A DNA stretch of 64,000 nucleotides from an uncultured Nitrospirales bacterium (GCA_964574765.1 CAZNPC010000001.1:28720-92719), one strand, 5' to 3'; positions 7,696 to 50,620 are shown, counted from the first letter of the stretch. Made by a program: numbers and translations. The notes: generated by a model not told the origin, from the sequence alone.

Positions 7696-7753
7696 ATTAA
7701 TCCGGTATATACTTAATATTATATCAAAAATCATGCCATAAGACCCTGAATCT

Positions 7754-10778: not shown

Positions 10779-13199
10779 CTAATTTGTTGTTACTGATTGC
10801 AGTTTAAATATCTCTTTTTTTGCTTTCCTTGAAAAATAACCTTTCGGCTCGATCCTCAGATATTCCTGAAAATGGTATATGGCATTGCCCCTGTCATTCC
10901 ATTTCAAAAAAACAAGGGCAATGCCATAGTGCGCATTGGCGTAATTAGGATCAAGATCAAGCGCCTGTTTCTGATACATATGTGATCTATCAAACAGGCC
11001 CAGATCGTAATAAATATATCCTATATTATTGTACGCAGCCGGATTAAACCGGTTGACCTCGATCGATCTCTTAAGCTCTTCAAGCGCAAGATTGTGTTTT
11101 TTTGCAATGTATGCGGCAAGCCCCTTCTGAAAATGCTCCTCGCCCATATTATTTTTTTTTGCCTGTTCATACATTAACAATGCTTCATTATATTTTATCT
11201 GATCATCGTTTTCCTGATATAAAGACATAAGAATAGGATATATGGAAACAATACGATTATTCATCTTCAGCGCTTTTTCAAGATATCTAATACACGTTTT
11301 ATTATCGTTCATTTCCATATAAGCAAGCCCAATATTATGTAGAATGACAGCATCGTTTTTTAATTTAAAGGCCTTTTTGTAATATTTTATGGACTTTTCA
11401 TACTCCCCGGTCTTACTGTAAGCAAAAGCAAGCCCCTGATACGCGTTATATATGTTGCTCATGATGGGATAGTCCTCTACTTTTGACAGAGCTTCAATGG
11501 CTTCTTTATACATCCCCTTATCGTTATAGATGAATCCGAGAAACGTGTATGCCATTGACGACCCTGTTTCATTAATGTTTCTTTTCAATTCACTGATAAG
11601 ACCTTCCAGATAATTCTTATCATGCAGTCTGGACCTTACTGCAGATGCGCCGTTTGCCGGTACAACATAGCGGTATTCATCCTGTTCAATTATATGTTTA
11701 AACTCGTCACCTCTTTTAAGATACACCATTGACAGATCATCCCAGTACACAAGCGCCCAGTCTTTTGATGAAAGGCCAAAATCTATATCTATGTCAACTT
11801 CCCTGAAGAATTTCTCAAGAAGCACATAGCTTAGGAGTGCCACATTAAATCCGTACTTTTCATGGAGTTCCTCCAGAAGTTTCGGCCGAGTCCTTGCCAC
11901 ATCAAGAGATTCAAGCAGTTCCCTTGATATATTTCCCCTGCCATCCACAAAGGCTGACCTTTTTGGAAAATCCCTCCACGTTATATAACCTCCCCAGTGA
12001 AAGGCATTGAATATTCTGCCGTAAATATTTCTTTTATCAAGATACTGAAGCGCCAGTTCAGGAAGATATTCATTATTGTATCCAAAACCGAACTTCTTTC
12101 CCGGCGTCGTAAAAGGCTTGATCTCCAGGCAGGCGAGTGTCGTAATGATAATAAGAACTGTAATAAGACTTGCATTAAGAATTCGCCACGCTTTGCCGTT
12201 GATCTTTATCTGAGCCGCAATATTCCTGACTATTACGGGTGCGCCGACAATGCCAAGCAGAAACATAAATCTTAATCCTGAAAAAGCCATATAAATGAAT
12301 GGCGCCACCAAAAACACATGAATTATCGAGATCCTTTTTATGTTTACAAAAAATGAAAGAATAATGGCAGCTGTCAGGAAATAGACCATCTTAAAATCTT
12401 TCCAGAGAGGTTTTTGAAGCTCTGTGATTTCATCAGCATACCAGCTCGTCCCTGACATCATCTCCGTTGGAGCGGAAAACGAATAAGAAGTATATGGATT
12501 CAAAAGGGTAGCTACCAGTACTGCCATGAACACCAGCATAATGACCGCCAATTGCCTGTTTGTCGGTGTAAACGGAAGTTTTAATTTATATCTCCTGTTC
12601 AGTATCCGATGCAAAATGCCGCCGATTATAAAGGCGCTAAAAGGCACTATGACCAGAACTGTGCTCGGATGCATGTTGACCCATATTATCTGGGTAAGGG
12701 GCAATATATATATATACTTCTTGCCTTCATGAACAAAAGCATTAAGCGAATAAATTAAAAACGCCAGAAAGAACATCAGTGCTATATCCGGCCTTTCCAC
12801 AATTCTGTGCCTGATCATAAACACAATGAATATTAAGACCGCTATTGAAGCGATATGCTCCCTGTCCGGAATAAGCGAATCCTTCAGAAGTATATAAATA
12901 GCCCCTGTTACAATTGCGGCTTTAAGCAGTATAACGCCATACAGGCTGAATGCCGCGTAAGCCAGGTAGAAAACAACATCAAACAGCCATTCAGGGTCGG
13001 CAAAGCCCCTGTTCAGGCTTGGATAGGAAAAAGGCTCATTATCCGGGAAGCCCCTGTTGTTTACGATCTCCCTGCCAAGGCTGAGATGAGTCCCGGCGTC
13101 ATAAGATTCAATCTTTATTATGCCAAGGATAAAAACACACGCCAGAAAAACCGTAATTAAGATGCGGGTTGTCCTCTCCGTCTTCGCGTAACTGGTCAT
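10779..13199 (-). CDS. polytopic membrane protein with C-terminal TPR repeats (GT-C-like or DUF2723-like putative glycosyltransferase)
   Basis: About 13 predicted TM helices in the N-terminal 500 aa, then a TPR array (YNAYQGLAFAYSKTGEYEKSIKYYKKAFKL... ALDLDPNYANAHYGIALVF). Confidence 0.5.
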   Translation of the reverse strand: MTSYAKTERTTRILITVFLACVFILGIIKIESYDAGTHLSLGREIVNNRGFPDNEPFSYPSLNRGFADPEWLFDVVFYLAYAAFSLYGVILLKAAIVTGAIYILLKDSLIPDREHIASIAVLIFIVFMIRHRIVERPDIALMFFLAFLIYSLNAFVHEGKKYIYILPLTQIIWVNMHPSTVLVIVPFSAFIIGGILHRILNRRYKLKLPFTPTNRQLAVIMLVFMAVLVATLLNPYTSYSFSAPTEMMSGTSWYADEITELQKPLWKDFKMVYFLTAAIILSFFVNIKRISIIHVFLVAPFIYMAFSGLRFMFLLGIVGAPVIVRNIAAQIKINGKAWRILNASLITVLIIITTLACLEIKPFTTPGKKFGFGYNNEYLPELALQYLDKRNIYGRIFNAFHWGGYITWRDFPKRSAFVDGRGNISRELLESLDVARTRPKLLEELHEKYGFNVALLSYVLLEKFFREVDIDIDFGLSSKDWALVYWDDLSMVYLKRGDEFKHIIEQDEYRYVVPANGASAVRSRLHDKNYLEGLISELKRNINETGSSMAYTFLGFIYNDKGMYKEAIEALSKVEDYPIMSNIYNAYQGLAFAYSKTGEYEKSIKYYKKAFKLKNDAVILHNIGLAYMEMNDNKTCIRYLEKALKMNNRIVSIYPILMSLYQENDDQIKYNEALLMYEQAKKNNMGEEHFQKGLAAYIAKKHNLALEELKRSIEVNRFNPAAYNNIGYIYYDLGLFDRSHMYQKQALDLDPNYANAHYGIALVFLKWNDRGNAIYHFQEYLRIEPKGYFSRKAKKEIFKLQSVTTN

Positions 13200-13226: not shown

Positions 13227-13589
13227 TCAGTGTTTTTTATCCTTAAATTCACTTTTTAATATCGCGAGTTCCTGGGTCAGGTCTTTAACCTGAAGGCTTA
13301 ATTTTGAGATTATAATAGAAAAATGAATTGATATCGCAAGAAGAAAGAGTATTGAAAAGATAAACAGAGTGGTAGTGGGCTCTATCGCTCCGATCAGATT
13401 TGTAATAAATACAAGCGGTTTATACCACACTACCAGTATTATCATACTAAGCCCGGTTAATATCCATAACCATGCATATTCTTCTTTAAGCCTTCTCTTC
13501 CTTAAAAGCTCGATTATAATAATAAATATGATCACAGAGGTTATGACAGCAAAGATCTTTTGATGAGTGGACATGTGAATAAAAGACAT
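13227..13589 (-). CDS. small membrane protein (DUF2304-like), partner of a DPM1-like GT2
   Basis: 120 aa with 3-4 TM helices and an EEYAWLWIL motif. Immediately downstream of a dolichol-phosphate-mannose-synthase-like GT2, the usual context of DUF2304. Confidence 0.5.
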   Translation of the reverse strand: MSFIHMSTHQKIFAVITSVIIFIIIIELLRKRRLKEEYAWLWILTGLSMIILVVWYKPLVFITNLIGAIEPTTTLFIFSILFLLAISIHFSIIISKLSLQVKDLTQELAILKSEFKDKKH

Positions 13590-13672: not shown

Positions 13673-14404
13673 TTATTTTTTATGAGATAGTTCAGTAAAC
13701 CCCTCTCTCCTTATCATTGTTAGAATTATCGATAGAACCATTTTAAAGATATAATAAACAGGCTTAATACCCGAATGCATGGATATTGCTGAACCATACA
13801 TTTGTACCGGTACTTCCTTTATTCTGAACCCTGATCGCTTCAGCATTATCAGCGTATCTGCGTCAGGAAAATCCGCAGGGTATCTTTCATTGACGTAAAA
13901 ACGGAGCACATCCATGTTCAGTGCCTGATAACCTGATGTTGAATCAGTAATCGGCTGTTTCATTAAGATCGATGCAATGGAACTGAACATTCTCATGCCA
14001 AGCTTTCGCATAAAAGCGATCTTATAAACGTTCTTACCTATAAATCTTGAACCTATAATGACGTCGGCTTCGTTGCTTTTAAGTACCTTTAGAAGATCTG
14101 GAATATATGAGGCGTCATGCTGCCCGTCCCCGTCAAGTTGAACGACACAGTCATAACCATTCTTTAAGGCATATTTATAGCCTGTCTGAAGGGCGGCTCC
14201 ATAGCCGAGATTAAATGCATGGCTTATCACCAGCGCACCTTCCTTAAAAGCCTCGGTAGCACAATTATCAGTTGAACCGTCATCCACAGCTACAATCCTT
14301 GCATCCGGGGCCACCTGTTTGACATCAGCCACAACCTTCTTAATATTTAGCTCTTCGTTATACATTGGTATTATGATAAGAGTATTATCATATTTAGTCG
14401 TCAT
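13673..14404 (-). CDS. GT2 family glycosyltransferase (polyprenyl-phosphate sugar synthase, DPM1-like)
   Basis: IIIPMYNEELNI ... VDDGSTDN ... DGDGQHD GT-A motifs. 243 aa. Confidence 0.8.
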   Translation of the reverse strand: MTTKYDNTLIIIPMYNEELNIKKVVADVKQVAPDARIVAVDDGSTDNCATEAFKEGALVISHAFNLGYGAALQTGYKYALKNGYDCVVQLDGDGQHDASYIPDLLKVLKSNEADVIIGSRFIGKNVYKIAFMRKLGMRMFSSIASILMKQPITDSTSGYQALNMDVLRFYVNERYPADFPDADTLIMLKRSGFRIKEVPVQMYGSAISMHSGIKPVYYIFKMVLSIILTMIRREGFTELSHKK

Positions 14405-14502: not shown

Positions 14503-15948
14503 TTAATATTTCCTCAAAATTGATAGAGACGCCTTGAACTTGTTTAAAAAGTCAGTTAAACCATGTAATTTTTTTAGTCTTTTTAGAATATATGATGGCC
14601 TGAAATAAAACCTGAGATATGCTTTTCTTATGATCTTTTCCATGTTTTCTTTAGTAAGATGAGGGAATGATATAAGAGATTGTTTCATAGGATCTATGGG
14701 AACGTACTCATCAGCAATCATCCATTTGTTTTTCTTTGCGATTTCATGAAAGTTTGTATGGGGGAATGGTGTGCAAATTGAAAAAAGGGCGTAATCCACA
14801 TCGAGTTTTATAGTCTCTGAAATAGTGTATTCAATGGTCTCTTTTGTTTCAAGCGGACAACTGCCTATTAAAATATTAAGTTCAGGTTCAATTCCATATC
14901 TCTTAAGCATGTTGACTGCAGTATAAATCGATTCTACTTTTAGGTCCTTTCTAATATAATCAAGTATCTCCTGATTAAATGATTCAATTCCAATGTCGAT
15001 ATATTTACAGCCGGCTTCTGCCATTGCCTTTATCAATTCATTGTTTTCTAAATGATCTGCCCTTGCAAGGCAAGACCATTCCATATTGAGGTCTCGTATG
15101 CCATTACATATTTCAATAATTCGGCTGCGATTCCACACAAATTGGTCATCTAAAAAAGAAAAAGATTTAAAACCATGCTTGTGCAGCATTTTTATTTCTT
15201 CAATAATATTATCGGCCGACCTTAATCTTACCGGGGGTTTTTCCATTGCAGAACTACACCTTTTGAATTCAATCTCACGAGCAAAATCAAGAGAGTTTGG
15301 GACGCAATAATAACAATTGTAGGAACATCCCCGTGATGAGATCATAGTAGTAAAAGGCAGTGCACATAATTTAGGATTGTGATAGTTTGCCGGTTCAAGA
15401 AGTGTCCTATCCGGGAAAGGAAGTCGGTCGAGATTATCAATTAATTTCCGTCTCACAGTATCAACTTTATCGCCGTTCCTGAGACAGCTAATGCCCTCAA
15501 CATTTACAGGTTCTGCTTTTGATTTAATAACATCCACCAACTCTTTAATGCTATCTTCAGGTTCCCCTCTTATTACAAAGCTATTACTATCAATAAATTC
15601 AGAAGGGTTAACTGTGGGTTCAGTGCCCATGAAAATGAATTTCGCATCACTATTTTTCTCACTTATAATATCTCTTGCGCTAAGGTCTGTTTTTTTCGAG
15701 AGAAAAACTGTATAAAAAACGTATATGTCTGAGTCATCACTTGCTGCAAATTGATAAAATTCATTTTTTCTTACCTTTTCAATCGGTAAATCTCTTACGA
15801 TGACATCATAGCCAGCCTCTTTCAGAACTGTTGCCGGATAGAGAACAAAAATATTAGGTTGGGTGTAGATGCCGTAGTTGCAGCCAAAAATCCTTTCAGC
15901 CGCTGGCTTTCCATCAAGAGGAGGAGGTGTAAGAAAGGTTATCTTCAT
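14503..15948 (-). CDS. B12-binding-domain radical SAM protein (class B)
   Basis: Rossmann-like N-terminal domain, then CX3CX2C (GCSYNCYYC) radical-SAM cluster motif. 481 aa. Confidence 0.75.
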   Translation of the reverse strand: MKITFLTPPPLDGKPAAERIFGCNYGIYTQPNIFVLYPATVLKEAGYDVIVRDLPIEKVRKNEFYQFAASDDSDIYVFYTVFLSKKTDLSARDIISEKNSDAKFIFMGTEPTVNPSEFIDSNSFVIRGEPEDSIKELVDVIKSKAEPVNVEGISCLRNGDKVDTVRRKLIDNLDRLPFPDRTLLEPANYHNPKLCALPFTTMISSRGCSYNCYYCVPNSLDFAREIEFKRCSSAMEKPPVRLRSADNIIEEIKMLHKHGFKSFSFLDDQFVWNRSRIIEICNGIRDLNMEWSCLARADHLENNELIKAMAEAGCKYIDIGIESFNQEILDYIRKDLKVESIYTAVNMLKRYGIEPELNILIGSCPLETKETIEYTISETIKLDVDYALFSICTPFPHTNFHEIAKKNKWMIADEYVPIDPMKQSLISFPHLTKENMEKIIRKAYLRFYFRPSYILKRLKKLHGLTDFLNKFKASLSILRKY

Positions 15949-16958
15949 TACTTTATCTCGCTGTTTTTAATTGGATATATTAATTCTCTCATAAAACCCG
16001 TTGACCATGCAAAAAATATTATTGATATCACAGCAGGCACCCGCAAAGATACCTTAAAAGAACCAGTTTTAAATAGTGAGACCAAAAAATATATAAAAAG
16101 AAATAGTGCGTATATAAGGAATAAAGACGCAAACAACGGGCGAGAGAAGAAAAGTACAACAATGCCCATTGGCGGAGTTATCCCCACAAGTATATGAAAC
16201 ACATTGATCATCCTTTTGTCCCGTTTGCCTACCTGAAGCCTGCCTATGGCATACCTGTACATCTGCTTCCACAGCCTTACATGGGTCGGCCGCCTGTAAT
16301 GCCAGACAAAAACATCAGGCGTATATAAAAGGCTGTAGCCATTATCAATAATTCTTTGATTCATTTCAGTGTCGTCACAGGTGAGCAGGCCCTCGTCAAC
16401 AGGCATCACCTTTTCCAGTGCCTCCCTTTTATATATAGCGTTGCAGCCCGGTATGCTTCTTACTTTTTTTATTTCTTTTAGATTTCTTGCATGTACTGAC
16501 CCGGCCGCGAAGATCGCCTGACCGAAGACAAATCCCACTGCTTTGCCAAACAGGGTCTCATTTTCAGGGGTTAGATTTGGGCCCCCTACCCCGGCAATCG
16601 TTTCATCATCAAAATATTTAATAGAATTCTTCAACCAGTTTACGTCTGCAACGCAGTCCGCATCAGTAAACGCGATTATATCTCCTCTTGCCTGCTTAAA
16701 GGCAATATTTCTGCCGGGCGATACCGTACCTGAAGGATTTGCAACGACTCTTGCCCCAAGCTTTTCTGCTATTTTGACGGTATTATCAGTGGACTGGCCG
16801 TCAGCAACAATGATTTCATAAGAATTTCGCGGGTATTCCAGGGCATTTAAGGCATTAAGGCATTGTTCAATAAGGCGCTCCTCGTTCTTTGCGGGAATAA
16901 TAATAGAAACAAATGGGACCGGACTTTTTGTCTTGAACTCGTCAATTTGATTATCCAT
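15948..16958 (-). CDS. GT2 family glycosyltransferase with C-terminal TM helices
   Basis: VSIIIPAKNEERLIEQCL ... IIVADGQSTDNT ... FTDADC. Confidence 0.8.
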   Translation of the reverse strand: MDNQIDEFKTKSPVPFVSIIIPAKNEERLIEQCLNALNALEYPRNSYEIIVADGQSTDNTVKIAEKLGARVVANPSGTVSPGRNIAFKQARGDIIAFTDADCVADVNWLKNSIKYFDDETIAGVGGPNLTPENETLFGKAVGFVFGQAIFAAGSVHARNLKEIKKVRSIPGCNAIYKREALEKVMPVDEGLLTCDDTEMNQRIIDNGYSLLYTPDVFVWHYRRPTHVRLWKQMYRYAIGRLQVGKRDKRMINVFHILVGITPPMGIVVLFFSRPLFASLFLIYALFLFIYFLVSLFKTGSFKVSLRVPAVISIIFFAWSTGFMRELIYPIKNSEIK

Positions 16959-17005
16959 TATTAATATTTCAATTGCATTATTCGATAATTATATGGAATC
17001 ACGGT

Positions 17006-17923
17006 TTATTTGTTTTTAAAGTATTCAACAGTATTGATCAAGCCGTCCTCAAGAGACATATCGGGCTGCCAGTTTAAAACTTGACTGGCTTTTTTATGAT
17101 CAATTACGCTTCTCATCTGTTCTCCGGTCTTTTGCGGCCCGTGAACTTCATTTGCCTTACTCCCTGTTATTTTTACCAACATCTTATATATGGTATTAAC
17201 ATCAGTCTCAAGAGCTGTGCCTATATTGAAAATGCCTCCTTCGCCAGTCATGATCGCCATGCGGTTTGCCTTAACTACATCTCCAACATATACAAAATCT
17301 CTTGTTTGTCTGCCGTCTCCATTTATAACCGGCTGTTCATTGTGAAGGAGTTTCTGTATGAAAATAGCGACAACACCTGCTTCACCATAAGGGTCCTGCC
17401 TTGGTCCATATACATTGCCATATCTGAGGACCACATAATCAAGGCCGTAGTTAGACCTGTAATAGAACAAATAGTTCTCTACTGCTAATTTTGCCACTCC
17501 GTAAGGACTTATGGGTCTAAGCGGATGACTTTCATCAGCAGGGAAAATATCCTGCTCGCCGTAGATCGCGCCGCCTGTAGAAGCGAATATCATTTTTTTT
17601 GAATCGTATTTAATGCAATTCTGCAGGATGTTTATAGTACCTATAATATTGGTTCTCGCATCGAAAGCAGGGTCTGCCACAGAGCGCCGCACATCAACCT
17701 GTGCCGCGTGATGATTTACAAGATCAGGTTTGACCTCCTGAAAGATCTTTTCCAGATCAGGAGATCCGATATCAGCTTCAAAAAACCTTGCTTCCGGATT
17801 TATGTTTTCCCTGCGGCCTGAGGACAGATTATCAATAACAGCCACATCTTCACCCTGTTTAATGTACGCATCTACTATGTGAGAGGCTATGAACCCGGCG
17901 CCGCCGGTTACTAGTATTTTCAT
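17006..17923 (-). CDS. NAD-dependent nucleotide-sugar epimerase/dehydratase (GalE/WbpP-like)
   Basis: [20 protein letters not shown] Rossmann motif. YxxxK in YGVAKLAVE. Confidence 0.8.
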   Translation of the reverse strand: MKILVTGGAGFIASHIVDAYIKQGEDVAVIDNLSSGRRENINPEARFFEADIGSPDLEKIFQEVKPDLVNHHAAQVDVRRSVADPAFDARTNIIGTINILQNCIKYDSKKMIFASTGGAIYGEQDIFPADESHPLRPISPYGVAKLAVENYLFYYRSNYGLDYVVLRYGNVYGPRQDPYGEAGVVAIFIQKLLHNEQPVINGDGRQTRDFVYVGDVVKANRMAIMTGEGGIFNIGTALETDVNTIYKMLVKITGSKANEVHGPQKTGEQMRSVIDHKKASQVLNWQPDMSLEDGLINTVEYFKNK

Positions 17924-17944
17924 GACTGAATTATTTAAACACCC

Positions 17945-18162
17945 TCTTAACCACTGAAAACACTAAAACCACAGAATTTGTAAAATTATTTTTAAAAATT
18001 TTCATTTTTTGCAAAGCCTTTTCAGCGTATTCAGTGACCTCAGTGCCTGCCCGCCAGTCTGTTTGGTGGGGTTCATATTTTCATAGTTAATCGCCAATTG
18101 TCCGTAGTTAGTAATTAGTTTTTACCTCTTTCACTATTTTTTTTCAGTGTACTCTGTGTTTT
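17945..18162. repeat. MITE-like intergenic element bounded by 15-bp perfect terminal inverted repeats (aaccactgaaaacac ... gtgttttcagtggtt)
   Basis: Inverted repeats at 17945-17959 and 18148-18162. The interior shares the block ttcagtg(a/c)ctcagtgcctgccc...gccagtctgt with 59838-59895. Confidence 0.55.
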
Positions 18163-18179
18163 CAGTGGTTACTATGAGC

Positions 18180-19106
18180 TCATAGCTTTTCAAAATACTC
18201 AATCGTTTTCTTCAGCCCTTCTTCCAGTTTTACTTTTGGCTCCCACTTAAGCAGTTCCCGCGCAAGGGAGATGTCAGGCTGGCGCTGGGTTGGGTCATCT
18301 TCGGGAAGGGGTTTGTTTATTATCTTTGATTTAGAGCCGGTCATTTCAATGACCTTGTTCGCCATTTCCAGGATACTGTTCTCAACAGGATTGCCCAGGT
18401 TAACAGGGCCTGTAATATCGTCCGTGGTGTTCATGAGCCGCACCATCCCGTCTATCAGGTCATCGACATAGCAAAAGCTCCTTGTCTGGCTTCCTTCACC
18501 GAAAACTGTTATATCCTCACCTTTTAACGCCTGAACAATAAAGTTGCTGATAACCCTGCCGTCGTCAGGAAGCATCTTTGGTCCGTAAGTATTGAATATT
18601 CGTGCTACTTTTATTTTCAGTTTATGCTGGCGGTGATAGTCAAAAAAAAGGGTCTCTGCGCACCTCTTCCCCTCATCGTAACAGGACCGCGGCCCCACAG
18701 GGTTCACGTTTCCCCAGTAGCTTTCAGTCTGTGGATGAACTGTCGGATCTCCGTAGACCTCGGACGTGGACGCCTGAAATATCTTTGCCTTTATCCGTTT
18801 GGCAAGCCCGAGCATGTTAATAGAGCCGTGAACAGATGTCTTAGTTGTCTGCACAGGGTCAAATTGGTAATGTATGGGAGATGCAGGACAGGCAAGGTTA
18901 TAAATTTCATCGACCTCAACATACAGCGGAAAACATATATCATGCCTCATTACCTCAAATAAAGGGTTCGGGAAATGCTTTGCTATATTTGAACGCCGCC
19001 CCGTATAGAAATTATCAACACACAGAACATCATGGCCGTCATTGAGTAATCTCTCACACAAATGACTTCCTAAAAAACCTGCTCCGCCAGTAACTAATAT
19101 CCTCAT
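18180..19106 (-). CDS. uxs: UDP-glucuronate decarboxylase (UDP-xylose synthase)
   Basis: [41 protein letters not shown], highly characteristic of UXS/ArnA-decarboxylase type SDRs. Confidence 0.8.
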
Positions 19107-19261
19107 TTTCGCTCCTCAATATAGTTCATAGCCTTCGACCCGAGCTCAGGCCGAGGGTTTGATAGTTCATAGCTCATAGCTCATAGTAAAAACACTTAAA
19201 ATAGCCTTTAGTTCATAGTTGATATTATAGTTTATAGGTTAAACTTATAATAGCATATTCT
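19107..19261. repeat. intergenic repeat family A (AGCTCATAG / CTATGAGCT palindromic ends), copy between uxs and GT2
   Basis: The stretch gatagctcatagtaaaaaca(c/t)ttaaaatagcc(t/c)ttagttca(t/c)agtt(g/a)atattatagt is about 92% identical to 58606-58668. Related copies lie at 4056-4177 and 18164-18177 (perfect 14-bp palindrome CTATGAGCTCATAG). Confidence 0.6.
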
Positions 19262-20311
19262 CTAGCCGTCAGGGCTGCAATTTCCGGACTTTTCAGTCTT
19301 TGAAAGCCGCACAAACTCTTTGAACGCTAAAGTGAATGAAACTATGACTGATTGTCTAAATAAATAGCTGTCTTTGACCTTTCTCCTTGCCTGTATTTCC
19401 CTTCTCTTTCTCATCAACTCAGGCAGGTATCTGAGAAAAGAAAAATACGCCTTGATCATCAAAAAGGCCGATCTGAACTCCAGCTTTAAAAAAAAACCGA
19501 GCATTTTTACAAAATGATAAGGCAGTGACACAAACAAAGCGATAAACACGTTATGGAGCTGATAGTTCTTGACTATATTAAAAAGGGCGTTCCTTGTGCC
19601 GTAAAACACCCTTACCGGCACATCACGTTCTGTGCCTGAGGTCCCGCCGAACTTATGGTAGATCACAGACTCAGGCACATATTCCACTTTTTTGCCAAAA
19701 AGCCAGTATCTCCAGCAGAGGTCTGTATCCTCAAAATACATGAAATGTTCCTCATCAAAACCGCCTATTCCCAGGAATTCCTCTTTTCTGACCATCATGG
19801 CAGCCGCGCACACGCACCCCCTGAACCTTCTGACATTATATTTTTCAGAATCCTTATCCATAAAACCTATGTCAAAGCCACTGCCTGTGATAATGATGCT
19901 GGCGCCTGCTGAGTTCACTGTGTCAGGCCTGTCAAGAAGCAGTATCTTGCTTCCAACCGCGCCGACATTTTTGTCTTTCATTAGCGCGTCAACAAGCGGG
20001 TTCAGCCAGCCCGGGGTCACAACAGTGTCATTGTTCAGGAACATTACGTACTCGCCTGCGGCATTCCCGGCCCCGATATTATTCGCCTTTGCAAAGCCCG
20101 TGTTTTCATCAAGTGCAATGACCCTTACCCATGGAAAGTTTTCCCTTGTGAACTCAACACTTCCGTCTGATGAGGCATTATCTATCATAATGGTCTCGAT
20201 CTTATCAAGGGGGTAATTGCTCTGTTTCAGTGAGTCAAAACATTTTCTCAGGTACTCGATCCCGTTATAATTAACTATAACTATCGAAACGCCTGGAATT
20301 AATTCAGTCAT
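19262..20311 (-). CDS. GT2 family glycosyltransferase
   Basis: VSIVIVNYNGIEYLRKCFDSL ... IMIDNASSDGS ... FLNNDT. Confidence 0.8.
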   Translation of the reverse strand: MTELIPGVSIVIVNYNGIEYLRKCFDSLKQSNYPLDKIETIMIDNASSDGSVEFTRENFPWVRVIALDENTGFAKANNIGAGNAAGEYVMFLNNDTVVTPGWLNPLVDALMKDKNVGAVGSKILLLDRPDTVNSAGASIIITGSGFDIGFMDKDSEKYNVRRFRGCVCAAAMMVRKEEFLGIGGFDEEHFMYFEDTDLCWRYWLFGKKVEYVPESVIYHKFGGTSGTERDVPVRVFYGTRNALFNIVKNYQLHNVFIALFVSLPYHFVKMLGFFLKLEFRSAFLMIKAYFSFLRYLPELMRKRREIQARRKVKDSYLFRQSVIVSFTLAFKEFVRLSKTEKSGNCSPDG

Positions 20312-20376
20312 ACATTCAATCCTGTCATGATCTTTCTATATTTCATGTCCCGCACAATCGTAAAAAACAGATTTAT

Positions 20377-21765
20377 CTACTTTTTTATAAGGCCGAAAAA
20401 TATAAGTGGTTTTTTGACCGCCTCCTTGATGTGCGGATGGCGCAGGAAAAAAGGCATCATCTTTGTTCCTAATCCAAGCAACAAGCTGTTCCTCATAACA
20501 GGGCTGTCCATGCCCACTGATTCCATCAGGGCGCGGTTGAGAAATTTATAGTCCACACCTTTTATTTTGGCCTCGGTCGGATTTCTTCGGTAACTGTCAT
20601 GACTTTTGATCAGGGACAGATTATGTTCCATACAATATTTGAACAGATCGCTGCCCGGATGGGGCGTATAAAATGCCGGGCTGTAGTGTTCCGGTTTAAT
20701 GGTCTGTATCATCTTTATGGTATCCATCACCTCTTCTCTGGTTTCAGTCGGGATTCCCATCATATAATTGGCCCATATTTCAACGCCGTACTTTCTGCAG
20801 ATTTCCGCACTTTTGAAATTATGCTCCACTTTCGTTCCTTTACGAAGAAAATTTAATACCCTCTGATTTCCGCTTTCAAATCCGATAAACATCAACTTAA
20901 GACCGGCATCTGACATAAGCGCTATCATGTCTTCATTGCGACAGATTATATCAGCCCTGCTCTGACAGGCAAACGGCTGATTAAATCCCTTTTCCCTGTA
21001 CAGCCTGCAAAATTCGATTACCCAAGGCCTGTCTTCGGTAATGCAGTCATCATGGATCATCATGCTTTTGAAGTTATACTTTTCGTTTAGCATACACAGT
21101 TCCTCGATGACATTTGAAGGACTGCGGCGCCTTACCTTTTTCCCAAATATTAATCTCTCAGCCGGCTGGCAATAATTACAATTAAATTTACATCCCCTGC
21201 CCGCGATCAACGTCACAAACGGCCTCTCAAAGCCTTTAACAGGGAGAGGATATTCCAGATCTTTGAACAGATCTCTGTCTATAAAAGAAAGTTTGTCAAG
21301 GTCTTCAGGAAACACACCTTTAATTACCCGCGGCGGTTTGTTGCCTTTTTCAGTATCCCTTAATAGTTCAACAAATGATATCTCTCCTTCTCCTGTTATA
21401 ATATGATCAACCGCTGTTTCTTTTATCAGCTCTTCCGGTACTATGGTCGGGTGGGGCCCTCCGGCAACCGTTACAGTCTGCGGAGAAATTTTTTTTATTA
21501 TATTTATGGCCTTCATGGCCGGATTATAATCCACGCTCATCATGGTCACGCCGACCACATCCGGCTTTTTTTCAGAGATGATCTTTCTGAAGTGTTTCCA
21601 ACTCTTTAGACAACGCAGGTCGATCAGCTCGGTTTTATATCCCTGATCCCGTGCGTAAGCGCTAATACTGCATAACCCGTGGCTTATCCAGGACTCCTCC
21701 ATCCCGTTTCCATAACTGTTAAACCCTATGCCCGATATACCGGGGAACAATAAAATCGTTTTCAT
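20377..21765 (-). CDS. B12-binding-domain radical SAM protein (class B), second copy
   Basis: N-terminal Rossmann/B12-like domain, then CX3CX2C (GCKFNCNYC). 462 aa. Paralogous in architecture to 14503-15948. Confidence 0.75.
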   Translation of the reverse strand: MKTILLFPGISGIGFNSYGNGMEESWISHGLCSISAYARDQGYKTELIDLRCLKSWKHFRKIISEKKPDVVGVTMMSVDYNPAMKAINIIKKISPQTVTVAGGPHPTIVPEELIKETAVDHIITGEGEISFVELLRDTEKGNKPPRVIKGVFPEDLDKLSFIDRDLFKDLEYPLPVKGFERPFVTLIAGRGCKFNCNYCQPAERLIFGKKVRRRSPSNVIEELCMLNEKYNFKSMMIHDDCITEDRPWVIEFCRLYREKGFNQPFACQSRADIICRNEDMIALMSDAGLKLMFIGFESGNQRVLNFLRKGTKVEHNFKSAEICRKYGVEIWANYMMGIPTETREEVMDTIKMIQTIKPEHYSPAFYTPHPGSDLFKYCMEHNLSLIKSHDSYRRNPTEAKIKGVDYKFLNRALMESVGMDSPVMRNSLLLGLGTKMMPFFLRHPHIKEAVKKPLIFFGLIKK

Positions 21766-22829
21766 TTCCCGCCTCTTCCTGAAAATCTCCCTAAAATTTT
21801 CTCCACAACAGCGCGTCTAATGTTACTGAAAAAAAAGCGCTCCATGTATTCAGCAGATACTTTTTTTCTTTTCTGTATTTGAGTTCGTTTTCTTAGCATT
21901 AGCGGCACATACCTTAATGTCATAAACGGAACTTTCAATACAAACAGGTTCCCTTCAATCACCTTGGTGAAATAAAAACCTGTCTCTATAATCAGTATCC
22001 ATATGATATTTTTCAATGAACTCAGAAAGATGGCGTTTTTTATAATAGCAAGGCTCCTGTTGCGATAACCAATAAGAATATACTCTTTTTTCATTGTAGA
22101 ATTATTATGTCTGGTAGCTCCTCTGTTATGATAAGCAATCGCCGTCGGCGTATAAAGGGCCTTCCATCCGTACAATTGCGCGCGCCAGCATAGATCTACA
22201 TCTTCGAAATATATATAAAAGTCCTCATCAAAATATTCATCAAACAGTTTGATGTCTTCAAGCATATTTCTGCTCAGGAGAGGGGCAGCGCCTGAAGCGC
22301 CAAAAATATAATCTGCCTCATTATGATCACCGCTGTCAGTTTCATTGTTGTCTCTGTCTGAAGCAAACATCCCAAGCATTGTTATTCCAGTTGAATCTAT
22401 TATGTTTGTTCTTTTCTCATCTTTCAGAACATAAAGTTTTCCTGATACAATGCCAATCCCCGTTGCAGATTCAATAGCTTTAACCATCTCTTGAACAAAA
22501 TTAGGGGCAAGCACAATGTCAAAGTTAAGTGGAAGAATCAATTCACCTGATGATATTCTTATAGCCTGGTTATGCGCCTTGCTGAATCCTTCATTCCCGG
22601 CATTGGCTATAAGCCTTATTTCCGGATAATTATCAGAAAGAAATCTGACTGAGTCATCTGATGAATTATTGTCAATGATATTGATTTCAATATTTTCATA
22701 GGTCTGAGACTTTATAGATTCAATACAATTCCTTAAATAATTCAGGCCATTCCAGTTAACTATATTTATTGAAACAAGCTTCAATGTTTTCCCCCTAATA
22801 TCAGCTTTATTGTCAACTATCTGTTCCAT
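21762..22829 (-). CDS. GT2 family glycosyltransferase
   Basis: VSINIVNWNGLNYLRNCIESIKSQTY ... IIDNNSSDDS. Overlaps the rSAM stop by 4 nt. Confidence 0.75.
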   Translation of the reverse strand: MEQIVDNKADIRGKTLKLVSINIVNWNGLNYLRNCIESIKSQTYENIEINIIDNNSSDDSVRFLSDNYPEIRLIANAGNEGFSKAHNQAIRISSGELILPLNFDIVLAPNFVQEMVKAIESATGIGIVSGKLYVLKDEKRTNIIDSTGITMLGMFASDRDNNETDSGDHNEADYIFGASGAAPLLSRNMLEDIKLFDEYFDEDFYIYFEDVDLCWRAQLYGWKALYTPTAIAYHNRGATRHNNSTMKKEYILIGYRNRSLAIIKNAIFLSSLKNIIWILIIETGFYFTKVIEGNLFVLKVPFMTLRYVPLMLRKRTQIQKRKKVSAEYMERFFFSNIRRAVVEKILGRFSGRGGK

Positions 22830-24264
22830 CTTTCCTCTTAAATATTAAATTCAGCATTTTCCCTGTCCGGCGCTTAAACACATTTAAAACCATTTTGGTT
22901 AGTATACCCGCAAGTGCAATAATTCTGACAAAAAAAGGGATTTTACGGCCAAGCCGCCAAATCGTAAAGAATGCTTCAGACGGATTATTCCGTGTCATTT
23001 GCGTTATAAGTGAATATGCCCGATTCCTTTTACCATGTGCAAACGCAAAGGGCAAAAGCCATTCAGCGAGTTGACATTTATCGCTACAGTACCGACTAAT
23101 TCCGCCCTCAATATCATCATAGTCAATAAGGCCGCTTCCTGCTTTACTACTCAGCTCTGACCACACTTTCCCTGCAAGATATGAATTGTGCTTGCGCAAA
23201 AGAATACTAAAAAAAAGATTGTCCAACTGCCTCCCGCTTAAGCTGTCAGGGCCAAGACGATATTCATACATACATGTAACTTTATTAATATGCTGGAAAT
23301 CATACGACCTGGCCGCCTTTGTCCACAGGTCCCAATCCATGGCATTTGGTAAGTCCCTCTCAAAAAGGCCGACATTCTCAAAACAGTCTCTTCGATGAGC
23401 CATGCATAGAATAGGAATATAGTTGTTTTCAGCAAATCGTCCCGGATCGAAATCATACGAAAATTCCACTGCTTCTGACTTATGTTTCCATTCTCCGTCT
23501 ATATATACTTTGACAATACGTCGGGCATCGGTATAGGCAAAAGATGATGATTCCAGGGCCGTGACGAGATTCTGCAAATGGTCCGGAAAATATTGGTCAT
23601 CATCATCTAAATAGGCAATATATTTTGACCTGGATGCCAGAATTCCCTGATTAAGAGCATGTGACAGGCCGCCGTGTTCAACATATAGATACCGGATCTT
23701 ATCTGAGTGAAATGATTCAATAACAGCTTCGCATTCTCTTGAACCTCCATCATTAACAATGATTATCTCAAAGTCCTTAAAAGTCTGGTTCAGAACGCTC
23801 TCAATAGCCCTCTTAATATATTGGGCGCGGTTATAAGTCGGCATAATTACACTTATGGTACGCTCAGGAGGGTTATCAGTAAAAGCCTGCCGGATCAGGG
23901 ACAATTCCTTTTCTTTGACACTGGTGTATTTAGCCATAAGGCGGTCATACCTCATAACGGCATCACTGTTATCATCTTCAAGCAGTAATGCCTCTGCAGA
24001 ACAGATTGCAGCATAAATACTGCCTTTACTTTCAAAGTAGTTCAGTAAAAATGTCCAGGCAGTTGAATCCGCGGTCCCAAGCACGACTTTAGCCTTGGCA
24101 TCAATGAATTGAAACTCAGGGTTCAGGTCAATTTGCCGTCCGGCGGCAGAGAGGAACTTCGTGTAGTTTTCACCTGTAGGTCTGGCAGTTAAATTGCGAA
24201 CAGTATAGTCTGCCTCATCCGTACTGACGGCATCTGTTTTGTTTTTACTGTCCATAACACTCAC
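22813..24264 (-). CDS. GT2 family glycosyltransferase with N-terminal extension
   Basis: ISVIMPTYNRAQYIKRAIESVLNQTF ... IIVNDGGSRE ... YLDDDD. Confidence 0.75.
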   Translation of the reverse strand: MSVMDSKNKTDAVSTDEADYTVRNLTARPTGENYTKFLSAAGRQIDLNPEFQFIDAKAKVVLGTADSTAWTFLLNYFESKGSIYAAICSAEALLLEDDNSDAVMRYDRLMAKYTSVKEKELSLIRQAFTDNPPERTISVIMPTYNRAQYIKRAIESVLNQTFKDFEIIIVNDGGSRECEAVIESFHSDKIRYLYVEHGGLSHALNQGILASRSKYIAYLDDDDQYFPDHLQNLVTALESSSFAYTDARRIVKVYIDGEWKHKSEAVEFSYDFDPGRFAENNYIPILCMAHRRDCFENVGLFERDLPNAMDWDLWTKAARSYDFQHINKVTCMYEYRLGPDSLSGRQLDNLFFSILLRKHNSYLAGKVWSELSSKAGSGLIDYDDIEGGISRYCSDKCQLAEWLLPFAFAHGKRNRAYSLITQMTRNNPSEAFFTIWRLGRKIPFFVRIIALAGILTKMVLNVFKRRTGKMLNLIFKRKDGTDS

Positions 24265-24294: not shown

Positions 24295-25335
24295 TTATCT
24301 TTCGCCGGTTTCTCCTGTAGAGTCATTAACCTGATTGCGCTGAAAACGTAATTTTATAGATCGTAAAACATCGATCAGGGGCCTGGGCAGTAACGTAAGT
24401 ATCAAACATGCAGTAAAAAGCAGCCATGAGCGTCTGTACAAGGGGTTATTAATTACAGATCTCCATATTAATTTCAAAGCGCCCCTGTAGTCTTTTCCGC
24501 CGAACAGCACTGTGGCCCAGAAGTAATAATTTTGAGCAATTTCTTTTTTACTTTGAGACGAGAACCCTGGGATTGCATTATCAATAAAACTGTCGATTTC
24601 TTTCTCACTCATGGTCTGTAATCTGTCTTCCCCGTTTTGTCTTCTTTCTTTGGCCATCATAACAGCAAGACATGCATATTTATCCTGCATAGTTTTCCTG
24701 TTTACAGATATCGCACCGGGATTCACTCTCCATTTGTAAAGCGGTTCAGGTATATTGGCAATATCATACATCTCGGAAATGCGGAGCCAGAGATCGTAAT
24801 CCTGCGATGATTTAAATTCTTCCCGGTATAATCCAGACTTTCCCAGACATTCCCTTCTGAACATAACCGTTCCGTGCCCAAATTGATTTGTTGTTAACAA
24901 CTTCTCCTTCAATTCTCTTCGATCAGTTAAAGGCCTTACTTCATGAAGGACATTACCTTTTTCATTTATCATCAGATAATACGTGCCTACAAGACCGACT
25001 TCATTGTTTTCATTCAGAAAATTAACCTGTTTCTCAAACCGATCAGGTATGGATACGTCATCCGCGTCCATACGGGCGATATATTGTCCGTTGGACATAT
25101 TAATTCCCTTATTGAGCGACTTGGTCAGACCAATGTTTTTGTCATTTTCAATGAGCCTGATTCTGGGGTCCCTATATGATTCTAGGATCTCTTTTGTTCC
25201 GTCATTTGAACCGTCATTAATTATTAAGAATTCAAAATCTTCAAATTTCTGGCTCAGGATGCTGTCAACAGCTTCCCTGAGAAACTGTTCTCCGTTATAA
25301 ACAGACATTAATACTGTTACTTTAGGGACTTTCAT
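24295..25335 (-). CDS. GT2 family glycosyltransferase
   Basis: VTVLMSVYNGEQFLREAVDSILSQKF ... LIINDGSNDGT ... RMDADD. Confidence 0.8.
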   Translation of the reverse strand: MKVPKVTVLMSVYNGEQFLREAVDSILSQKFEDFEFLIINDGSNDGTKEILESYRDPRIRLIENDKNIGLTKSLNKGINMSNGQYIARMDADDVSIPDRFEKQVNFLNENNEVGLVGTYYLMINEKGNVLHEVRPLTDRRELKEKLLTTNQFGHGTVMFRRECLGKSGLYREEFKSSQDYDLWLRISEMYDIANIPEPLYKWRVNPGAISVNRKTMQDKYACLAVMMAKERRQNGEDRLQTMSEKEIDSFIDNAIPGFSSQSKKEIAQNYYFWATVLFGGKDYRGALKLIWRSVINNPLYRRSWLLFTACLILTLLPRPLIDVLRSIKLRFQRNQVNDSTGETGER

Positions 25336-25363: not shown

Positions 25364-27130
25364 TTACAACTGAATACCATTCTCCCTGAGCCAGACAAGA
25401 AGAACGAATATTTTCCAGTGATTATAATCAGGTTTGCCTAACAGTAGATGTTTTTTTAAACTTTCAATATATAAAGGCTTAACCAACTTTAACAGATTGG
25501 AACTTTCCTGATTGATTATCTCAAGCAGTTTTGTTTTAAATACATCCTCACCCATCCAGTACCGGACAGGTGCGCCAAATCCCATTTTCGGCCTTTCAAG
25601 AAAATCATCAGACATATCTCCAGACAATATTTCTTTAATAATAATCTTGCTTTTTTTGCTTGTCACTTTATCAGCCAGTGATAGTGCGTTTACAAAATTC
25701 ACAAGTTCATGGTCAAGAAAAGGGCATCTGGCCTCAAGACCGTTTGCCATCGAAGCAATATCCACTTTCTTGAAAAGATTATCAGGCAGTCTCTGATGCT
25801 GTTCATGAAAGATAATATCTTCTATCGAATTCAGCACAAGCTCATCAAAGTGTTCAAGCAATCCTGAGAGATCCAGATCGTAATTGAGCCTCAGTTCCTC
25901 TATAGAGCTGAAAGCCATCATATCCTGGTATTTACTCTTAAGGCTGATCTCTTTTGCGGGTCTGCCTTTTGCCAGATTTTTCAGGAAGGACAGGAATTTT
26001 AAATATTGTTTCATTAGATCGGCATACCGTGCGTATCCTCCAAACAGTTCATCACCGCCCTCACCTGTTAGAACAACTTTGAGGCTTTTAGACGCAAAAT
26101 CCGAGATCATGTACGTCGGCACACAGGCAGAATCCCCAAATGGCTCGGAATAACACGAAATTATCCTCTCGATTGCACGAAAATCAGGATTAATATCAAT
26201 GATATTGGGCTTTACGCCATATTTTTCGCTAGCGCGGCTAATATATTCATATTCGCTAATGTATGAACCAAACGTCGCAGAGAACGTTCTTATGTCGGGT
26301 TTTAATTTTGACGCATACTTTAAAACAGTTGTTGAATCAAGCCCACCGCTCAGAAATATGCCGACTTCCACATCAGCAATAAGATGTCTTTTTACAGCTT
26401 TTTCGAGCAAATACGAGGTATTATCCAGAATTTCGTGAAATTTCAGTTTTTCAATCCCGGATTCAGTATCATGGACAGAATATTTTCTAACTTTAATTCC
26501 ACTGGAATCAACAACAATGTAACTTTGGGGGGGCAGTTTATAAACATTTTTATATACAGCATGAGGTGCGGGAATGTAATTATAAAAAAAATAAAATGCA
26601 AGAGCCGACGCATTTAGCTCCATATCAACTTCCCTATGGTTTCGCAGAGCCTTCATTTCACTGGCAAATATAAAGTCTTTACCCGGGATGTAATAATATT
26701 CAAACGGTTTTTGACCAAATCTGTCTCTTGCGCAATATAAAATGTTTTCCTGAAAATCATAAATAGCAAGTGCAAACATACCGTTCAACATTCCGAACGC
26801 ATCAACCCCGTATGTTTCAAACAAATGAAGGATTACCTCAGTATCAGTTTTTGTCTTGAACTGGTGTAAAGTTAACTTATCCTTTAACTCACTGTAATTA
26901 TAAATTTCTCCATTAAATATAATGCACAACTCATTGTTTTCGTTGAAAATCGGCTGATTGCCAGTTTCGAGGTCTATAATTGACAGACGCCTGAAGCCAA
27001 GAGCTACATTATCTTTAATAAAGAAGCCTTTATCATCAGGACCCCTGTGCACAAGTGCAGAGGTCATTTTCTTTATAGAGTCACCGTCAGCCTTATTTCC
27101 AAATGAAAACTGACCTGCAATTCCGCACAT
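25364..27130 (-). CDS. asnB: asparagine synthetase (glutamine-hydrolysing) homologue, probable sugar-acid amidotransferase (WbpS-like role)
   Basis: N-terminal MCGIAGQF (class II amidotransferase catalytic Cys2). PP-loop SGGLDS. 588 aa. Located inside the glycan locus. Confidence 0.8.
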   Translation of the reverse strand: MCGIAGQFSFGNKADGDSIKKMTSALVHRGPDDKGFFIKDNVALGFRRLSIIDLETGNQPIFNENNELCIIFNGEIYNYSELKDKLTLHQFKTKTDTEVILHLFETYGVDAFGMLNGMFALAIYDFQENILYCARDRFGQKPFEYYYIPGKDFIFASEMKALRNHREVDMELNASALAFYFFYNYIPAPHAVYKNVYKLPPQSYIVVDSSGIKVRKYSVHDTESGIEKLKFHEILDNTSYLLEKAVKRHLIADVEVGIFLSGGLDSTTVLKYASKLKPDIRTFSATFGSYISEYEYISRASEKYGVKPNIIDINPDFRAIERIISCYSEPFGDSACVPTYMISDFASKSLKVVLTGEGGDELFGGYARYADLMKQYLKFLSFLKNLAKGRPAKEISLKSKYQDMMAFSSIEELRLNYDLDLSGLLEHFDELVLNSIEDIIFHEQHQRLPDNLFKKVDIASMANGLEARCPFLDHELVNFVNALSLADKVTSKKSKIIIKEILSGDMSDDFLERPKMGFGAPVRYWMGEDVFKTKLLEIINQESSNLLKLVKPLYIESLKKHLLLGKPDYNHWKIFVLLVWLRENGIQL

Positions 27131-42425: not shown

Positions 42426-42650
42426 GACTTTATATGTAAATCTTTTATTACAGGATTAATGATGTGTGCCAATTTTCTCATATTATATATATCTGATATT
42501 GCAATTTTCCTGTATTCGATTGTGAACTGGAAGAATGATATAAATCATACAGGCTTGCGAAGAAATATTAAATAGTTGTCTCCAATTGCAATACCAATGG
42601 TCTTTTTAATAAAGTAATACAGTGGTTCCTAGTCATCATAACCGCTTTTT

Positions 42651-48079: not shown

Positions 48080-48145
48080 TTCAGTGACTCCCTAATAATA
48101 AAAATACTTCCAAGCATAGATATCCCGGTAAACTCATGTGATAAT

Positions 48146-50615: not shown

Positions 50616-50620
50616 ATCGT

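Follow-up and report, generated by a model that had tools for sequence, protein, structure and literature searches.

Sugar tailoring by radical S-adenosylmethionine (SAM) enzymes is known from antibiotics (AprD4, GenK, and DesII) and, by genetics only, from glycolipids (HpnJ and Cds). A contraction of the hexose ring once the sugar has been transferred is ascribed to HpnJ, PtmC, and Cds, none of which has been reconstituted (PMC9092360, PMC13459092); for HpnJ, genetic evidence indicates an action on a sugar already transferred to a lipid. Sugar-directed B12 radical-SAM methylases include GenK, GenD1, Fms7, and MoeK5, radical methylases carry a hydrophobic residue under the corrin (the position of TokK W76), and AprD4 is given as not binding cobalamin (PMC12931638). 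Here we analysed a stretch of 64,000 nucleotides (nt) from an uncultured Nitrospirales bacterium (GCA_964574765.1 CAZNPC010000001.1:28720-92719), hereafter the window, in which two radical-SAM enzymes with a Rossmann domain of the B12 type, rSAM-A and rSAM-B, are each encoded directly downstream of a GT2 glycosyltransferase gene (Table 1). An initial annotation, made from the DNA alone, had proposed that both are class B enzymes that may C-methylate or otherwise modify a sugar during chain assembly, and it knew of no enzyme of this type with a known function in a polysaccharide locus. Full-text literature searches agreed with the last point, as they yielded no characterised B12/radical-SAM enzyme in a polysaccharide, O-antigen, or deoxythymidine diphosphate (dTDP) context. 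The annotation had nevertheless overlooked the existing precedents for a glycosyltransferase combined with a radical-SAM enzyme, i.e., HpnI/HpnJ and PtmJ/PtmC, as well as Cds, which acts on glycosylated glycerol dialkyl glycerol tetraether.

On balance, and with slightly more than even confidence, we interpret rSAM-A and rSAM-B as two paralogous radical-SAM enzymes that tailor sugars and belong to the HpnJ/BchE/AprD4 branch, each working with its coupled GT2, in a locus for a glycan exported by Wzm/Wzt. Both proteins scored above the gathering score (29.5 bits) of the Pfam Radical_SAM model (PF04055), with 70.6 bits for rSAM-A and 66.6 bits for rSAM-B, and the barrels of their AlphaFold2 (AF2) models matched radical-SAM structures. 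The cluster motif CX3CX2C reads C208-SYN-C212-YY-C215 (CSYNCYYC) in the former and C192/C196/C199 (CKFNCNYC) in the latter. They are distant paralogues (30% identity over 367 residues, E-value 4e-41), and their profile alignment with hhalign spanned both domains with a probability of 100%, the N-terminal domains being homologous. The common architecture that had been read from the DNA, a Rossmann/B12-type domain followed by CX3CX2C, was thus recovered with Pfam and hhalign alike. The gene junctions were also as described, with a translational coupling in both pairs: the start of rSAM-B overlaps the stop of its upstream GT2 by 4 nt (ATGA, 21762–21765), and we observed that rSAM-A overlaps the stop of its own GT2 as well, by 1 nt (TAATG at 15948). 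Since about 7 of the roughly 20 genes of the locus encode GT2s, so that an upstream GT2 is expected by chance about once in three, this adjacency proves little in the present locus alone; it becomes meaningful because the pairing recurs in other genomes.

We compared the two enzymes with the named families of NCBIfam. The best family matches were in both cases HpnJ and BchE, neither of which is a methylase. HpnJ (TIGR03471) gave 198 bits with rSAM-A and 151.9 bits with rSAM-B for an equivalog cutoff of 577.6 bits, BchE (TIGR02026) 117.8 and 143.6 bits (cutoff 481), and the AprD4 model (NF033070) 92.9 and 59.7 bits (cutoff 500). The best scores with methylase families, whose cutoffs range from 360 to 650 bits, were obtained with PhpK for rSAM-A (85 bits) and with HpnR (106), PhpK (99), and QCMT (89) for rSAM-B, and no methylase family (HpnR, the GenK-like KedN5, PhpK, QCMT, or Fom3-type) came near its cutoff with either enzyme; HpnP was absent among the matches listed. 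Weak hidden Markov model (HMM) matches also included lipid enzymes (the ladderane family) besides the phosphonate enzyme PhpK. Among annotated plasmids, no relative exceeded 30% identity. The two enzymes are members of two separate, tightly conserved, unnamed families. The step from class B to C-methylase taken in the initial annotation therefore found no backing in the family cutoffs for either protein, and it stayed reasonable for rSAM-B on account of its strong B12-binding domain, its GGPHP motif, and its structural proximity to QCMT.

The two families indeed differ in their N-terminal domains. rSAM-B matched the B12-binding model (PF02310) with 75.7 bits for a gathering score of 32.1, and every one of its listed relatives (55–82% identity) carries PF02310. 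GGPHP is present throughout the family, save for a GGAHP variant in one of the 23 aligned members, and a loop with the sequence MMSVDYNP is nearly invariant. Residue V78 of this loop aligns, weakly and by sequence alignment only, with the lower-axial W76 of TokK; being hydrophobic, it fits the rule for radical methylases mentioned above (PMC12931638). The top Foldseek match of the rSAM-B AF2 model (predicted local distance difference test score 83.5) was the cobalamin-dependent methylase QCMT. With 31.8 bits (E-value 1.4e-7), rSAM-A falls 0.3 bits under the gathering score of PF02310, and about half of its family members have a precomputed match to this model. The canonical GG of the cobalamin fingerprint, which follows strand beta-4 of the Rossmann fold, is replaced by [G/A/S]-T-E-P-T in family A. 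It is further characterised by an invariant and unstructured N-terminal loop, ERIFGCNYGIY, specific to the family, and by an insert directly after the cluster motif. The solved structure nearest to the rSAM-A AF2 model was AprD4, a cobalamin-free enzyme acting on a sugar. The annotation would have given up its proposal if the N-terminal domains turned out not to bind cobalamin; the slightly sub-threshold score and the replaced GG element go halfway towards this for rSAM-A, and rSAM-B has a strong match to the B12-binding model. The profile classification that it had called for likewise gave Radical_SAM for both enzymes and B12-binding for rSAM-B, with rSAM-A just short of it and both below the BchE, HpnJ, and methylase subfamily cutoffs.

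To define the distribution of family A, we retained one genome per species and found 55 loci, all in metagenome-assembled genomes (MAGs). The members (48–76% identity) come from at least seven bacterial phyla, with hosts among Nitrospirota, Omnitrophota, Planctomycetota, Riflebacteria, Fermentibacteria, WOR-3, and Thermodesulfobacteriota, and from archaea (Aenigmatarchaeota, ANME-1, and Halobacteriota), the nearest named relative of rSAM-A being that of Nitrospirae bacterium RBG_13_39_12 (72% identity). An immediate GT2 neighbour on the same strand was present in 34 of the 45 informative loci, upstream in 19 and downstream in 15. The gap between the two genes was at most 30 nt in 31 of these 34 loci, with a median of −4 nt, these sizes being approximate as open reading frames (ORFs) of related loci were called by a simple longest-ORF routine. 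In the 22 loci that extended at least 5 kb to either side, the genes found within 6 kb of the rSAM-A orthologue encoded a GT2 (20 loci), a polytopic membrane protein (13), another B12-type radical-SAM paralogue (10), a GacI-like synthase (7), or a GT4 (7). The GacI/PpgS-like GT2 cluster was seen in 18 rSAM-A loci, and some loci also encode GT-C proteins of the PMT_2 type. A short-chain dehydrogenase/reductase (SDR) gene was near in a single one of the 22 loci, and we thus saw no link to nucleotide-sugar enzymes: family A goes with the assembly of glycans at the membrane, not with the synthesis of nucleotide sugars. A conserved co-occurrence of the two families was ruled out, as the additional radical-SAM paralogues of the B12 type encoded near rSAM-A orthologues share only about 28% identity with rSAM-B.

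Family B is much more abundant, with at least 531 stretches confirmed in the metagenome scan. In a first subclade (at least 64% identical to the window protein), the gene occurs in Wzm-Wzt-methyltransferase-GT2-[B]-GT2 strings, with a GT2 within three genes of the rSAM-B orthologue in 20 of the 23 loci; where a GT2 lies directly upstream (15 cases), it is in 12 of them orthologous (53–67% identity) to the GT2 coupled to rSAM-B. The second subclade groups the members at 54–63% identity, on metagenome contigs whose named close relatives are mostly Chloroflexota. Here, 17 of the 47 loci have an orthologue of the long form of rmlA within three genes and 14 have an orthologue of rmlB, both passing the equivalog cutoffs. 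Several junctions are 4-nt overlaps, and some rSAM-B genes are set between the two, forming an rmlA-rSAM-rmlB cassette. Neither rmlC nor rmlD was found near the rSAM-B orthologues of this subclade, and GT2s were rare. Taken together, the GT2 pairing and the glycan context recur elsewhere for these enzymes, in agreement with the sugar- or glycan-directed role put forward in the annotation.

Two rSAM-B orthologues have further neighbours of note. In one Chloroflexota locus (L145, 8205–13531), the gene neighbours those of an SDR, an LPG_synthase_TM protein, and a GT2 of the GT21 type. The hpnJ-hpnI locus of Burkholderia (L142, 6001–9708) contains the same trio of B12-type radical-SAM enzyme, GT21-type GT2, and LPG_synthase_TM protein, which hints at a shared glycolipid-making module. 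In another locus (L057, 9814–17410), six tandem paralogous genes of about 500 codons lie directly downstream of an rSAM-B orthologue (68% identity), each encoding a Peptidase_S74 (tail-fibre chaperone) domain; these proteins could be glycosylated surface fibres. Near the same orthologue, a SPASM radical-SAM enzyme similar to that of the window (27135–28253) is encoded between two B12-type radical-SAM genes.

Judging from their motifs and fold, both enzymes would coordinate a [4Fe-4S] cluster, use it for the reductive cleavage of SAM, and remove a hydrogen atom from one of the carbons of a sugar. In the case of rSAM-A, the 5'-deoxyadenosyl radical would take the hydrogen from a sugar already attached by the partner GT2 to a membrane-bound acceptor, which would be the growing glycan itself or an intermediate carried on a lipid or polyprenol. 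The result would be a 1,2-diol dehydration of the AprD4 type, giving a deoxy-keto product, or else an HpnJ-type rearrangement, and the modified unit may belong to, or lie beside, a side-chain branch resembling GacI/GacJ/GT-C. We favoured such a non-methylating outcome, to which we give about an even chance, because of the structural proximity to AprD4, the end-to-end similarity to HpnJ, the degenerate cobalamin fingerprint, and the lack of a link to nucleotide sugars; C-methylation by rSAM-A appears unlikely and some other reaction more doubtful still. For rSAM-B, we favoured a cobalamin-dependent chemistry on a dTDP-hexose, given that its cobalamin domain is intact, that it resembles QCMT, and that its orthologues are coupled to rmlA and rmlB. 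The enzyme would bind cobalamin and act on dTDP-glucose or dTDP-4-keto-6-deoxyglucose in the dTDP-6-deoxyhexose pathway, and its coupled GT2 would then transfer the unusual sugar. Radical C-methylation is the single most likely reaction of rSAM-B, with a probability that we place a little short of even. Most economically, rSAM-B thus probably makes or modifies a dTDP-6-deoxyhexose, which is afterwards transferred by a dedicated GT2. A methylation "during chain assembly," as first proposed, does not agree with this context, which points to the dTDP-sugar stage. The two halves can be combined, tentatively and with a rather low likelihood, into a scheme in which rSAM-B would be the first radical-SAM enzyme to use cobalamin on a nucleotide sugar, its conserved rmlA-rSAM-rmlB cassette giving a new C-alkylated or otherwise rearranged dTDP-6-deoxyhexose, and family A, across its many bacterial and archaeal phyla, would remodel GT2-installed sugars of lipid-linked or surface glycans into deoxy-keto or carbocyclic residues by radical chemistry of the AprD4/HpnJ type.

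Several observations weigh against this interpretation or parts of it. Neither enzyme reached the cutoff of any NCBIfam model, and this makes a transfer of function from the named families impossible. The Rossmann domain of rSAM-A is detectably similar by sequence to the cobalamin domain of OxsB (residues 149–250), which is not the case for the N-terminal domain of AprD4; moreover, rSAM-A L83, equivalent to TokK W76 through the hhalign alignment to rSAM-B (again a weak correspondence from sequence alignment), is hydrophobic, a feature of methylases. rSAM-A may thus bind cobalamin and methylate as well. The partner GT2s of the rSAM-A orthologues fall into three subtypes, ruling out a single orthologous partner and arguing against a fixed enzyme pair with one substrate. 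Concerning rSAM-B, AprD4 practically tied with QCMT in the Foldseek ranking, the rmlABD genes of the window are 34 kb away, and the gene context of the Chloroflexota locus described above suggests, by analogy with the hpn locus, an action on a glycolipid after transfer. The Rfam scan of the window detected no cobalamin riboswitch and no other Rfam family, and no cobalamin-related gene was found within the window. Finally, all members of both families that we found come from MAGs or metagenomes.

The alternative closest to the initial annotation is that both proteins are cobalamin-dependent class B C-methyltransferases that methylate an unactivated sugar carbon during chain assembly by the neighbouring GT2s. 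Most characterised radical-SAM enzymes with a B12 domain are methylases, with the sugar-directed precedents cited above (PMC12931638), the Rossmann domains of both proteins are homologous to B12-binding domains, both have a hydrophobic TokK W76 equivalent, and QCMT, CysS, TsrM, and TokK were among the strong structural matches. We nevertheless regard it as unlikely that both are such methylases, as the methylase families are far from their cutoffs with the non-methylases HpnJ and BchE scoring highest, rSAM-A is closest to the cobalamin-free AprD4 with a sub-threshold B12 domain devoid of GG, the rmlA-rSAM-rmlB cassettes indicate that rSAM-B works at the nucleotide-sugar stage and not on the polymer, and the locus already contains several ordinary methyltransferases.

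Both enzymes might instead act like HpnJ, PtmC, and Cds, contracting a GT2-attached hexose or hexosamine to a carbocyclic cyclopentitol and so producing an acid-stable, ether-linked surface pseudo-sugar. HpnJ being the top family match for both, its end-to-end alignment with rSAM-A, the adjacency of hpnJ and hpnI, and the rSAM-B orthologue accompanied, as in the hpn locus, by a GT21-type GT2 and an LPG_synthase_TM protein are all in line with this idea, as are the NodB-type deacetylase-like genes (assigned by eye from the sequence) beside GT2 and rSAM-A in four Thermodesulfobacteriota loci. Carbocyclic sugars with an unknown biosynthetic origin, such as caryose, also occur in lipopolysaccharides (PMC9092360). 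Yet both proteins are far under the HpnJ cutoff, the identity of rSAM-A to HpnJ is only 25%, the window contains neither hopanoid genes nor an HpnK-type deacetylase, and the HpnJ chemistry itself has never been reconstituted. A ring contraction by both enzymes would in addition leave the rmlA/rmlB coupling of rSAM-B unexplained, and contracting a polyprenyl-phosphate sugar would abolish its donor activity; we therefore judge it quite improbable. Least credible to us, with a very small probability, is an incidental GT2 adjacency with substrates other than sugars: either the polyprenyl carrier or some other membrane lipid, or else a peptide, a protein, or a phosphonate substituent. Such substrates would accommodate the weak matches to ladderane-family and PhpK models, the variable subtype of the rSAM-A partner, and the relatives (23–29% identity) found in clusters of the type for ribosomally synthesized and post-translationally modified peptides (RiPPs), for instance on a Clostridium estertheticum plasmid. 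Against them stand the GT2 pairing with overlapping stop and start conserved across bacterial and archaeal phyla, the coupling of rSAM-B to rmlA and rmlB, the sugar substrate of the solved structure nearest to rSAM-A, and a window that contains no precursor peptide, PqqD-type gene, phosphoenolpyruvate (PEP) mutase, or lipid-synthesis gene. The lack of the first three rules out the phosphonate (Fom3/PhpK-type) and RiPP readings; the locus of the Clostridium relative is, besides, unlike that of the window.

Table 1. Positions of the two GT2-rSAM pairs and of other features in the 64-kb window (TM, transmembrane; TPR, tetratricopeptide repeat; aa, amino acids).
Feature	Position	Strand	Remarks
rSAM-A, HpnJ/AprD4-like radical-SAM enzyme with N-terminal Rossmann (B12-like) domain	14503-15948	minus	481 aa
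GT2 coupled to rSAM-A (GT2-A)	15948-16958	minus	Glycos_transf_2 104 bits
rSAM-B, radical-SAM enzyme with bona fide B12-binding domain	20377-21765	minus	462 aa
GT2 coupled to rSAM-B	21762-22829	minus	Glycos_transf_2 82 bits
Polytopic membrane protein, about 10 TM-like segments and C-terminal TPR domain	10779-13199	minus	GT-C/TMTC-like by architecture only
DUF2304 small membrane protein, GacJ homologue	13227-13589	minus	Pfam DUF2304 85 bits; three TM-like segments
GacI/PpgS-like GT2, candidate polyprenyl-phosphate-sugar synthase	13673-14404	minus	98 nt downstream of rSAM-A
Two SDR-type nucleotide-sugar epimerase/dehydratase-family genes	17006-17923, 18180-19106	minus	Between the GT2-rSAM pairs
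GT2 directly downstream of rSAM-B	19262-20311	minus	65-nt gap
Two further GT2s, same operon	22813-24264, 24295-25335	minus	
AsnB-type glutamine amidotransferase	25364-27130	minus	
Third radical-SAM enzyme, SPASM/twitch type	27135-28253	minus	4 nt upstream of AsnB-type gene
Glycan-tailoring genes: fused GT1-like/methyltransferase, methyltransferase, sulfotransferase	28280-31686	minus	
Wzt, ABC_tran and Wzt_C glycan-binding domain	31730-32950	minus	Wzt_C 66 bits
Wzm, ABC2_membrane permease	33580-34461	minus	
RfaH-like regulator	54663-55154	minus	108 bits, under 144.5 cutoff
rmlD	55949-56779	minus	Above equivalog cutoff
rmlB	57004-58023	minus	Above equivalog cutoff
Cupin-like ORF, possible rmlC, between rmlA and rmlB	58147-58587	minus	Matched no rmlC family
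rmlA-long	58715-59779	minus	Above equivalog cutoff

The two pairs are part of a glycan gene string with short gaps, every gene from about 5.4 to 63.8 kb being on the minus strand. Wzm and Wzt share this string and strand with the glycosyltransferases, so that the locus is one for an ABC-transporter-dependent glycan. In the order of transcription, it encodes Wzm, Wzt, the sulfotransferase, the methyltransferase, the fused GT1-like/methyltransferase, the SPASM radical-SAM enzyme, the AsnB-type protein, three GT2s, and rSAM-B, followed by a GT2, the two SDRs, GT2-A, rSAM-A, the GacI/PpgS-like GT2, the DUF2304 protein, and the TM+TPR protein. The C-terminal part of GT2-A contains two TM-like segments; the best of its weak family matches was MftF-like, and it passed the threshold of Pfam Glyco_transf_21 narrowly. 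The GacI/PpgS-like GT2 scored 116 bits with NCBIfam PpgS (cutoff 370) and also matched AglJ and dolichyl-phosphate hexose transferases. Matches of the TM+TPR protein in the PDB, Pfam, and NCBIfam concerned the TPR part alone, its membrane domain having none to a known GT-C, and neither SDR reached an equivalog cutoff. The fused protein (28280–29860) combines a Glyco_trans_1_2 domain with a C-terminal class I methyltransferase domain and may be a chain terminator similar to WbdD, in view of the Wzt_C domain that the transporter carries. A promoter and terminator scan of the 13–23 kb region gave counts at chance level.

The glycan of this locus probably contains rhamnose. With rmlA, rmlB, rmlD, and a possible rmlC, the window itself encodes the dTDP-sugar pathway whose genes are physically coupled to rSAM-B orthologues in other genomes, in favour of the role proposed for rSAM-B. 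The position of the RfaH-like gene between the rml genes and the glycan loci suggests an antitermination control of the gene string of about 40 kb. Upstream lies a second, tandem Wzm/Wzt glycan locus (35115–54353, minus strand), encoding a GDP-mannose 4,6-dehydratase, an epimerase, WbqC, two DegT aminotransferases, methyltransferases, a sulfotransferase, a CMP-type cytidylyltransferase, a 2-hydroxyacid dehydrogenase, a PF04199 cyclase, and an MptE-like protein, and this gene content suggests a sulfated glycan that is perosamine-like or contains nonulosonic acid. Directly downstream of each Wzm gene is a paralogous "23S rRNA intervening sequence protein" gene (PF05635; 33081–33461 and 52526–52915, minus strand), an odd placement that occurs twice. 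The glycan region is flanked on both sides (5458–8836 and 60158–62152, minus strand) by genes for multihaem c-type cytochromes (Paired_CXXCH, MtrC-like) in pairs with those for NHL-repeat beta-propeller proteins.

The radical-SAM superfamily and the general idea of sugar tailoring by its members are already known. What appears to be undescribed are two conserved unnamed families in surface-polysaccharide loci, their fixed partners (a coupled GT2 or the rmlA-rSAM-rmlB cassette), and their breadth across uncultivated bacteria and archaea. Both occur in large numbers among anaerobic and mostly uncultivated lineages, DPANN archaea and ANME-1 being among them. The fixed coupled partners, a GT2 for both families and rmlA/rmlB for one subclade of family B, make them directly testable as cassettes of two or three genes. 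With either reaction solved, a sugar structure and an enzyme reaction would be added to those known, the annotation of thousands of entries named "B12-binding radical SAM protein" could be corrected, and the chemistry of the HpnJ type might be clarified indirectly. If the combined scheme for rSAM-A and rSAM-B holds, it would mean that an anaerobic route to unusual surface sugars is widespread among uncultivated bacteria and archaea.

Compared with the described systems, the two enzymes share a Rossmann domain of the B12-binding type and the radical-SAM barrel with the class B methyltransferases (QCMT/MgmA [9ccb], TokK, and CysS, and the sugar-directed GenK, GenD1, and MoeK5). The GGPH motif and the hydrophobic lower-axial residue of these methylases are also found in rSAM-B, whereas rSAM-A lacks GG, and no class B methylase is known to take part in the assembly of a polysaccharide or to have a nucleotide sugar as its substrate. 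AprD4 (PDB 6fd2), the 1,2-diol dehydratase of apramycin biosynthesis, acts on a free pseudodisaccharide with the reductase AprD3 as partner; its cluster motif is CX3CX3C (CPYPCRFYC) instead of the CX3CX2C of both window enzymes, and it lacks cobalamin, in contrast to rSAM-B with its strong B12-binding domain. A precedent at the dTDP-6-deoxyhexose stage, as suggested by the rSAM-B cassettes, is DesII, which acts on a TDP-sugar in desosamine biosynthesis, although it lacks a B12-type domain and falls in another branch of the radical-SAM enzymes.

In the group A carbohydrate of streptococci, the rhamnan that an ABC transporter exports subsequently receives its decoration from a polyprenyl-phosphate sugar. 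This sugar is the product of GacI, which is stimulated by GacJ (DUF2304), and its transfer falls to the GT-C protein GacL (bioRxiv 10.1101/180810). These systems, including PpgS/Rv3632 of mycobacteria, are without a radical-SAM enzyme, and the GT-C nature of the window's polytopic protein is by architecture only. The window likewise has, directly downstream of rSAM-A, a GacI/PpgS-like GT2, a DUF2304 protein, and a polytopic protein, and the likeness extends to the export by an ABC transporter and to the rml genes elsewhere in the window. A related gene string with a similar gene mix is present on plasmid 1 of the cultured pathogen Lawsonia intracellularis (L141, 4621–19223). It comprises a GT2, GalE, a GT2, two DUF2304 genes, a SIS-domain gene, and a B12-like radical-SAM gene whose product is 25% identical to rSAM-A, and continues with methyltransferases, a second radical-SAM gene, a GT2, a HAD gene, and a GHMP kinase. 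Its radical-SAM genes are annotated merely as "radical SAM protein," and this locus could be an experimentally tractable model.

HpnJ differs from the window enzymes by its hopanoid context (hpnI, hpnK, and shc), as opposed to an ABC-transporter glycan locus, and rSAM-A differs from it by its own N-terminal GCNY loop and the insert after the cluster motif. For the rest, HpnJ has the same two-domain architecture as both window enzymes, with a C-terminal helical tail (YFRP motif) in common. A bona fide HpnJ from a Burkholderia replicon aligned with rSAM-A from end to end, its cobalamin fingerprint has G-A at the GG position and is thus likewise devoid of GG, and hpnJ adjoins the gene of its GT2 partner, hpnI, in a manner analogous to the GT2-rSAM pairs described here.

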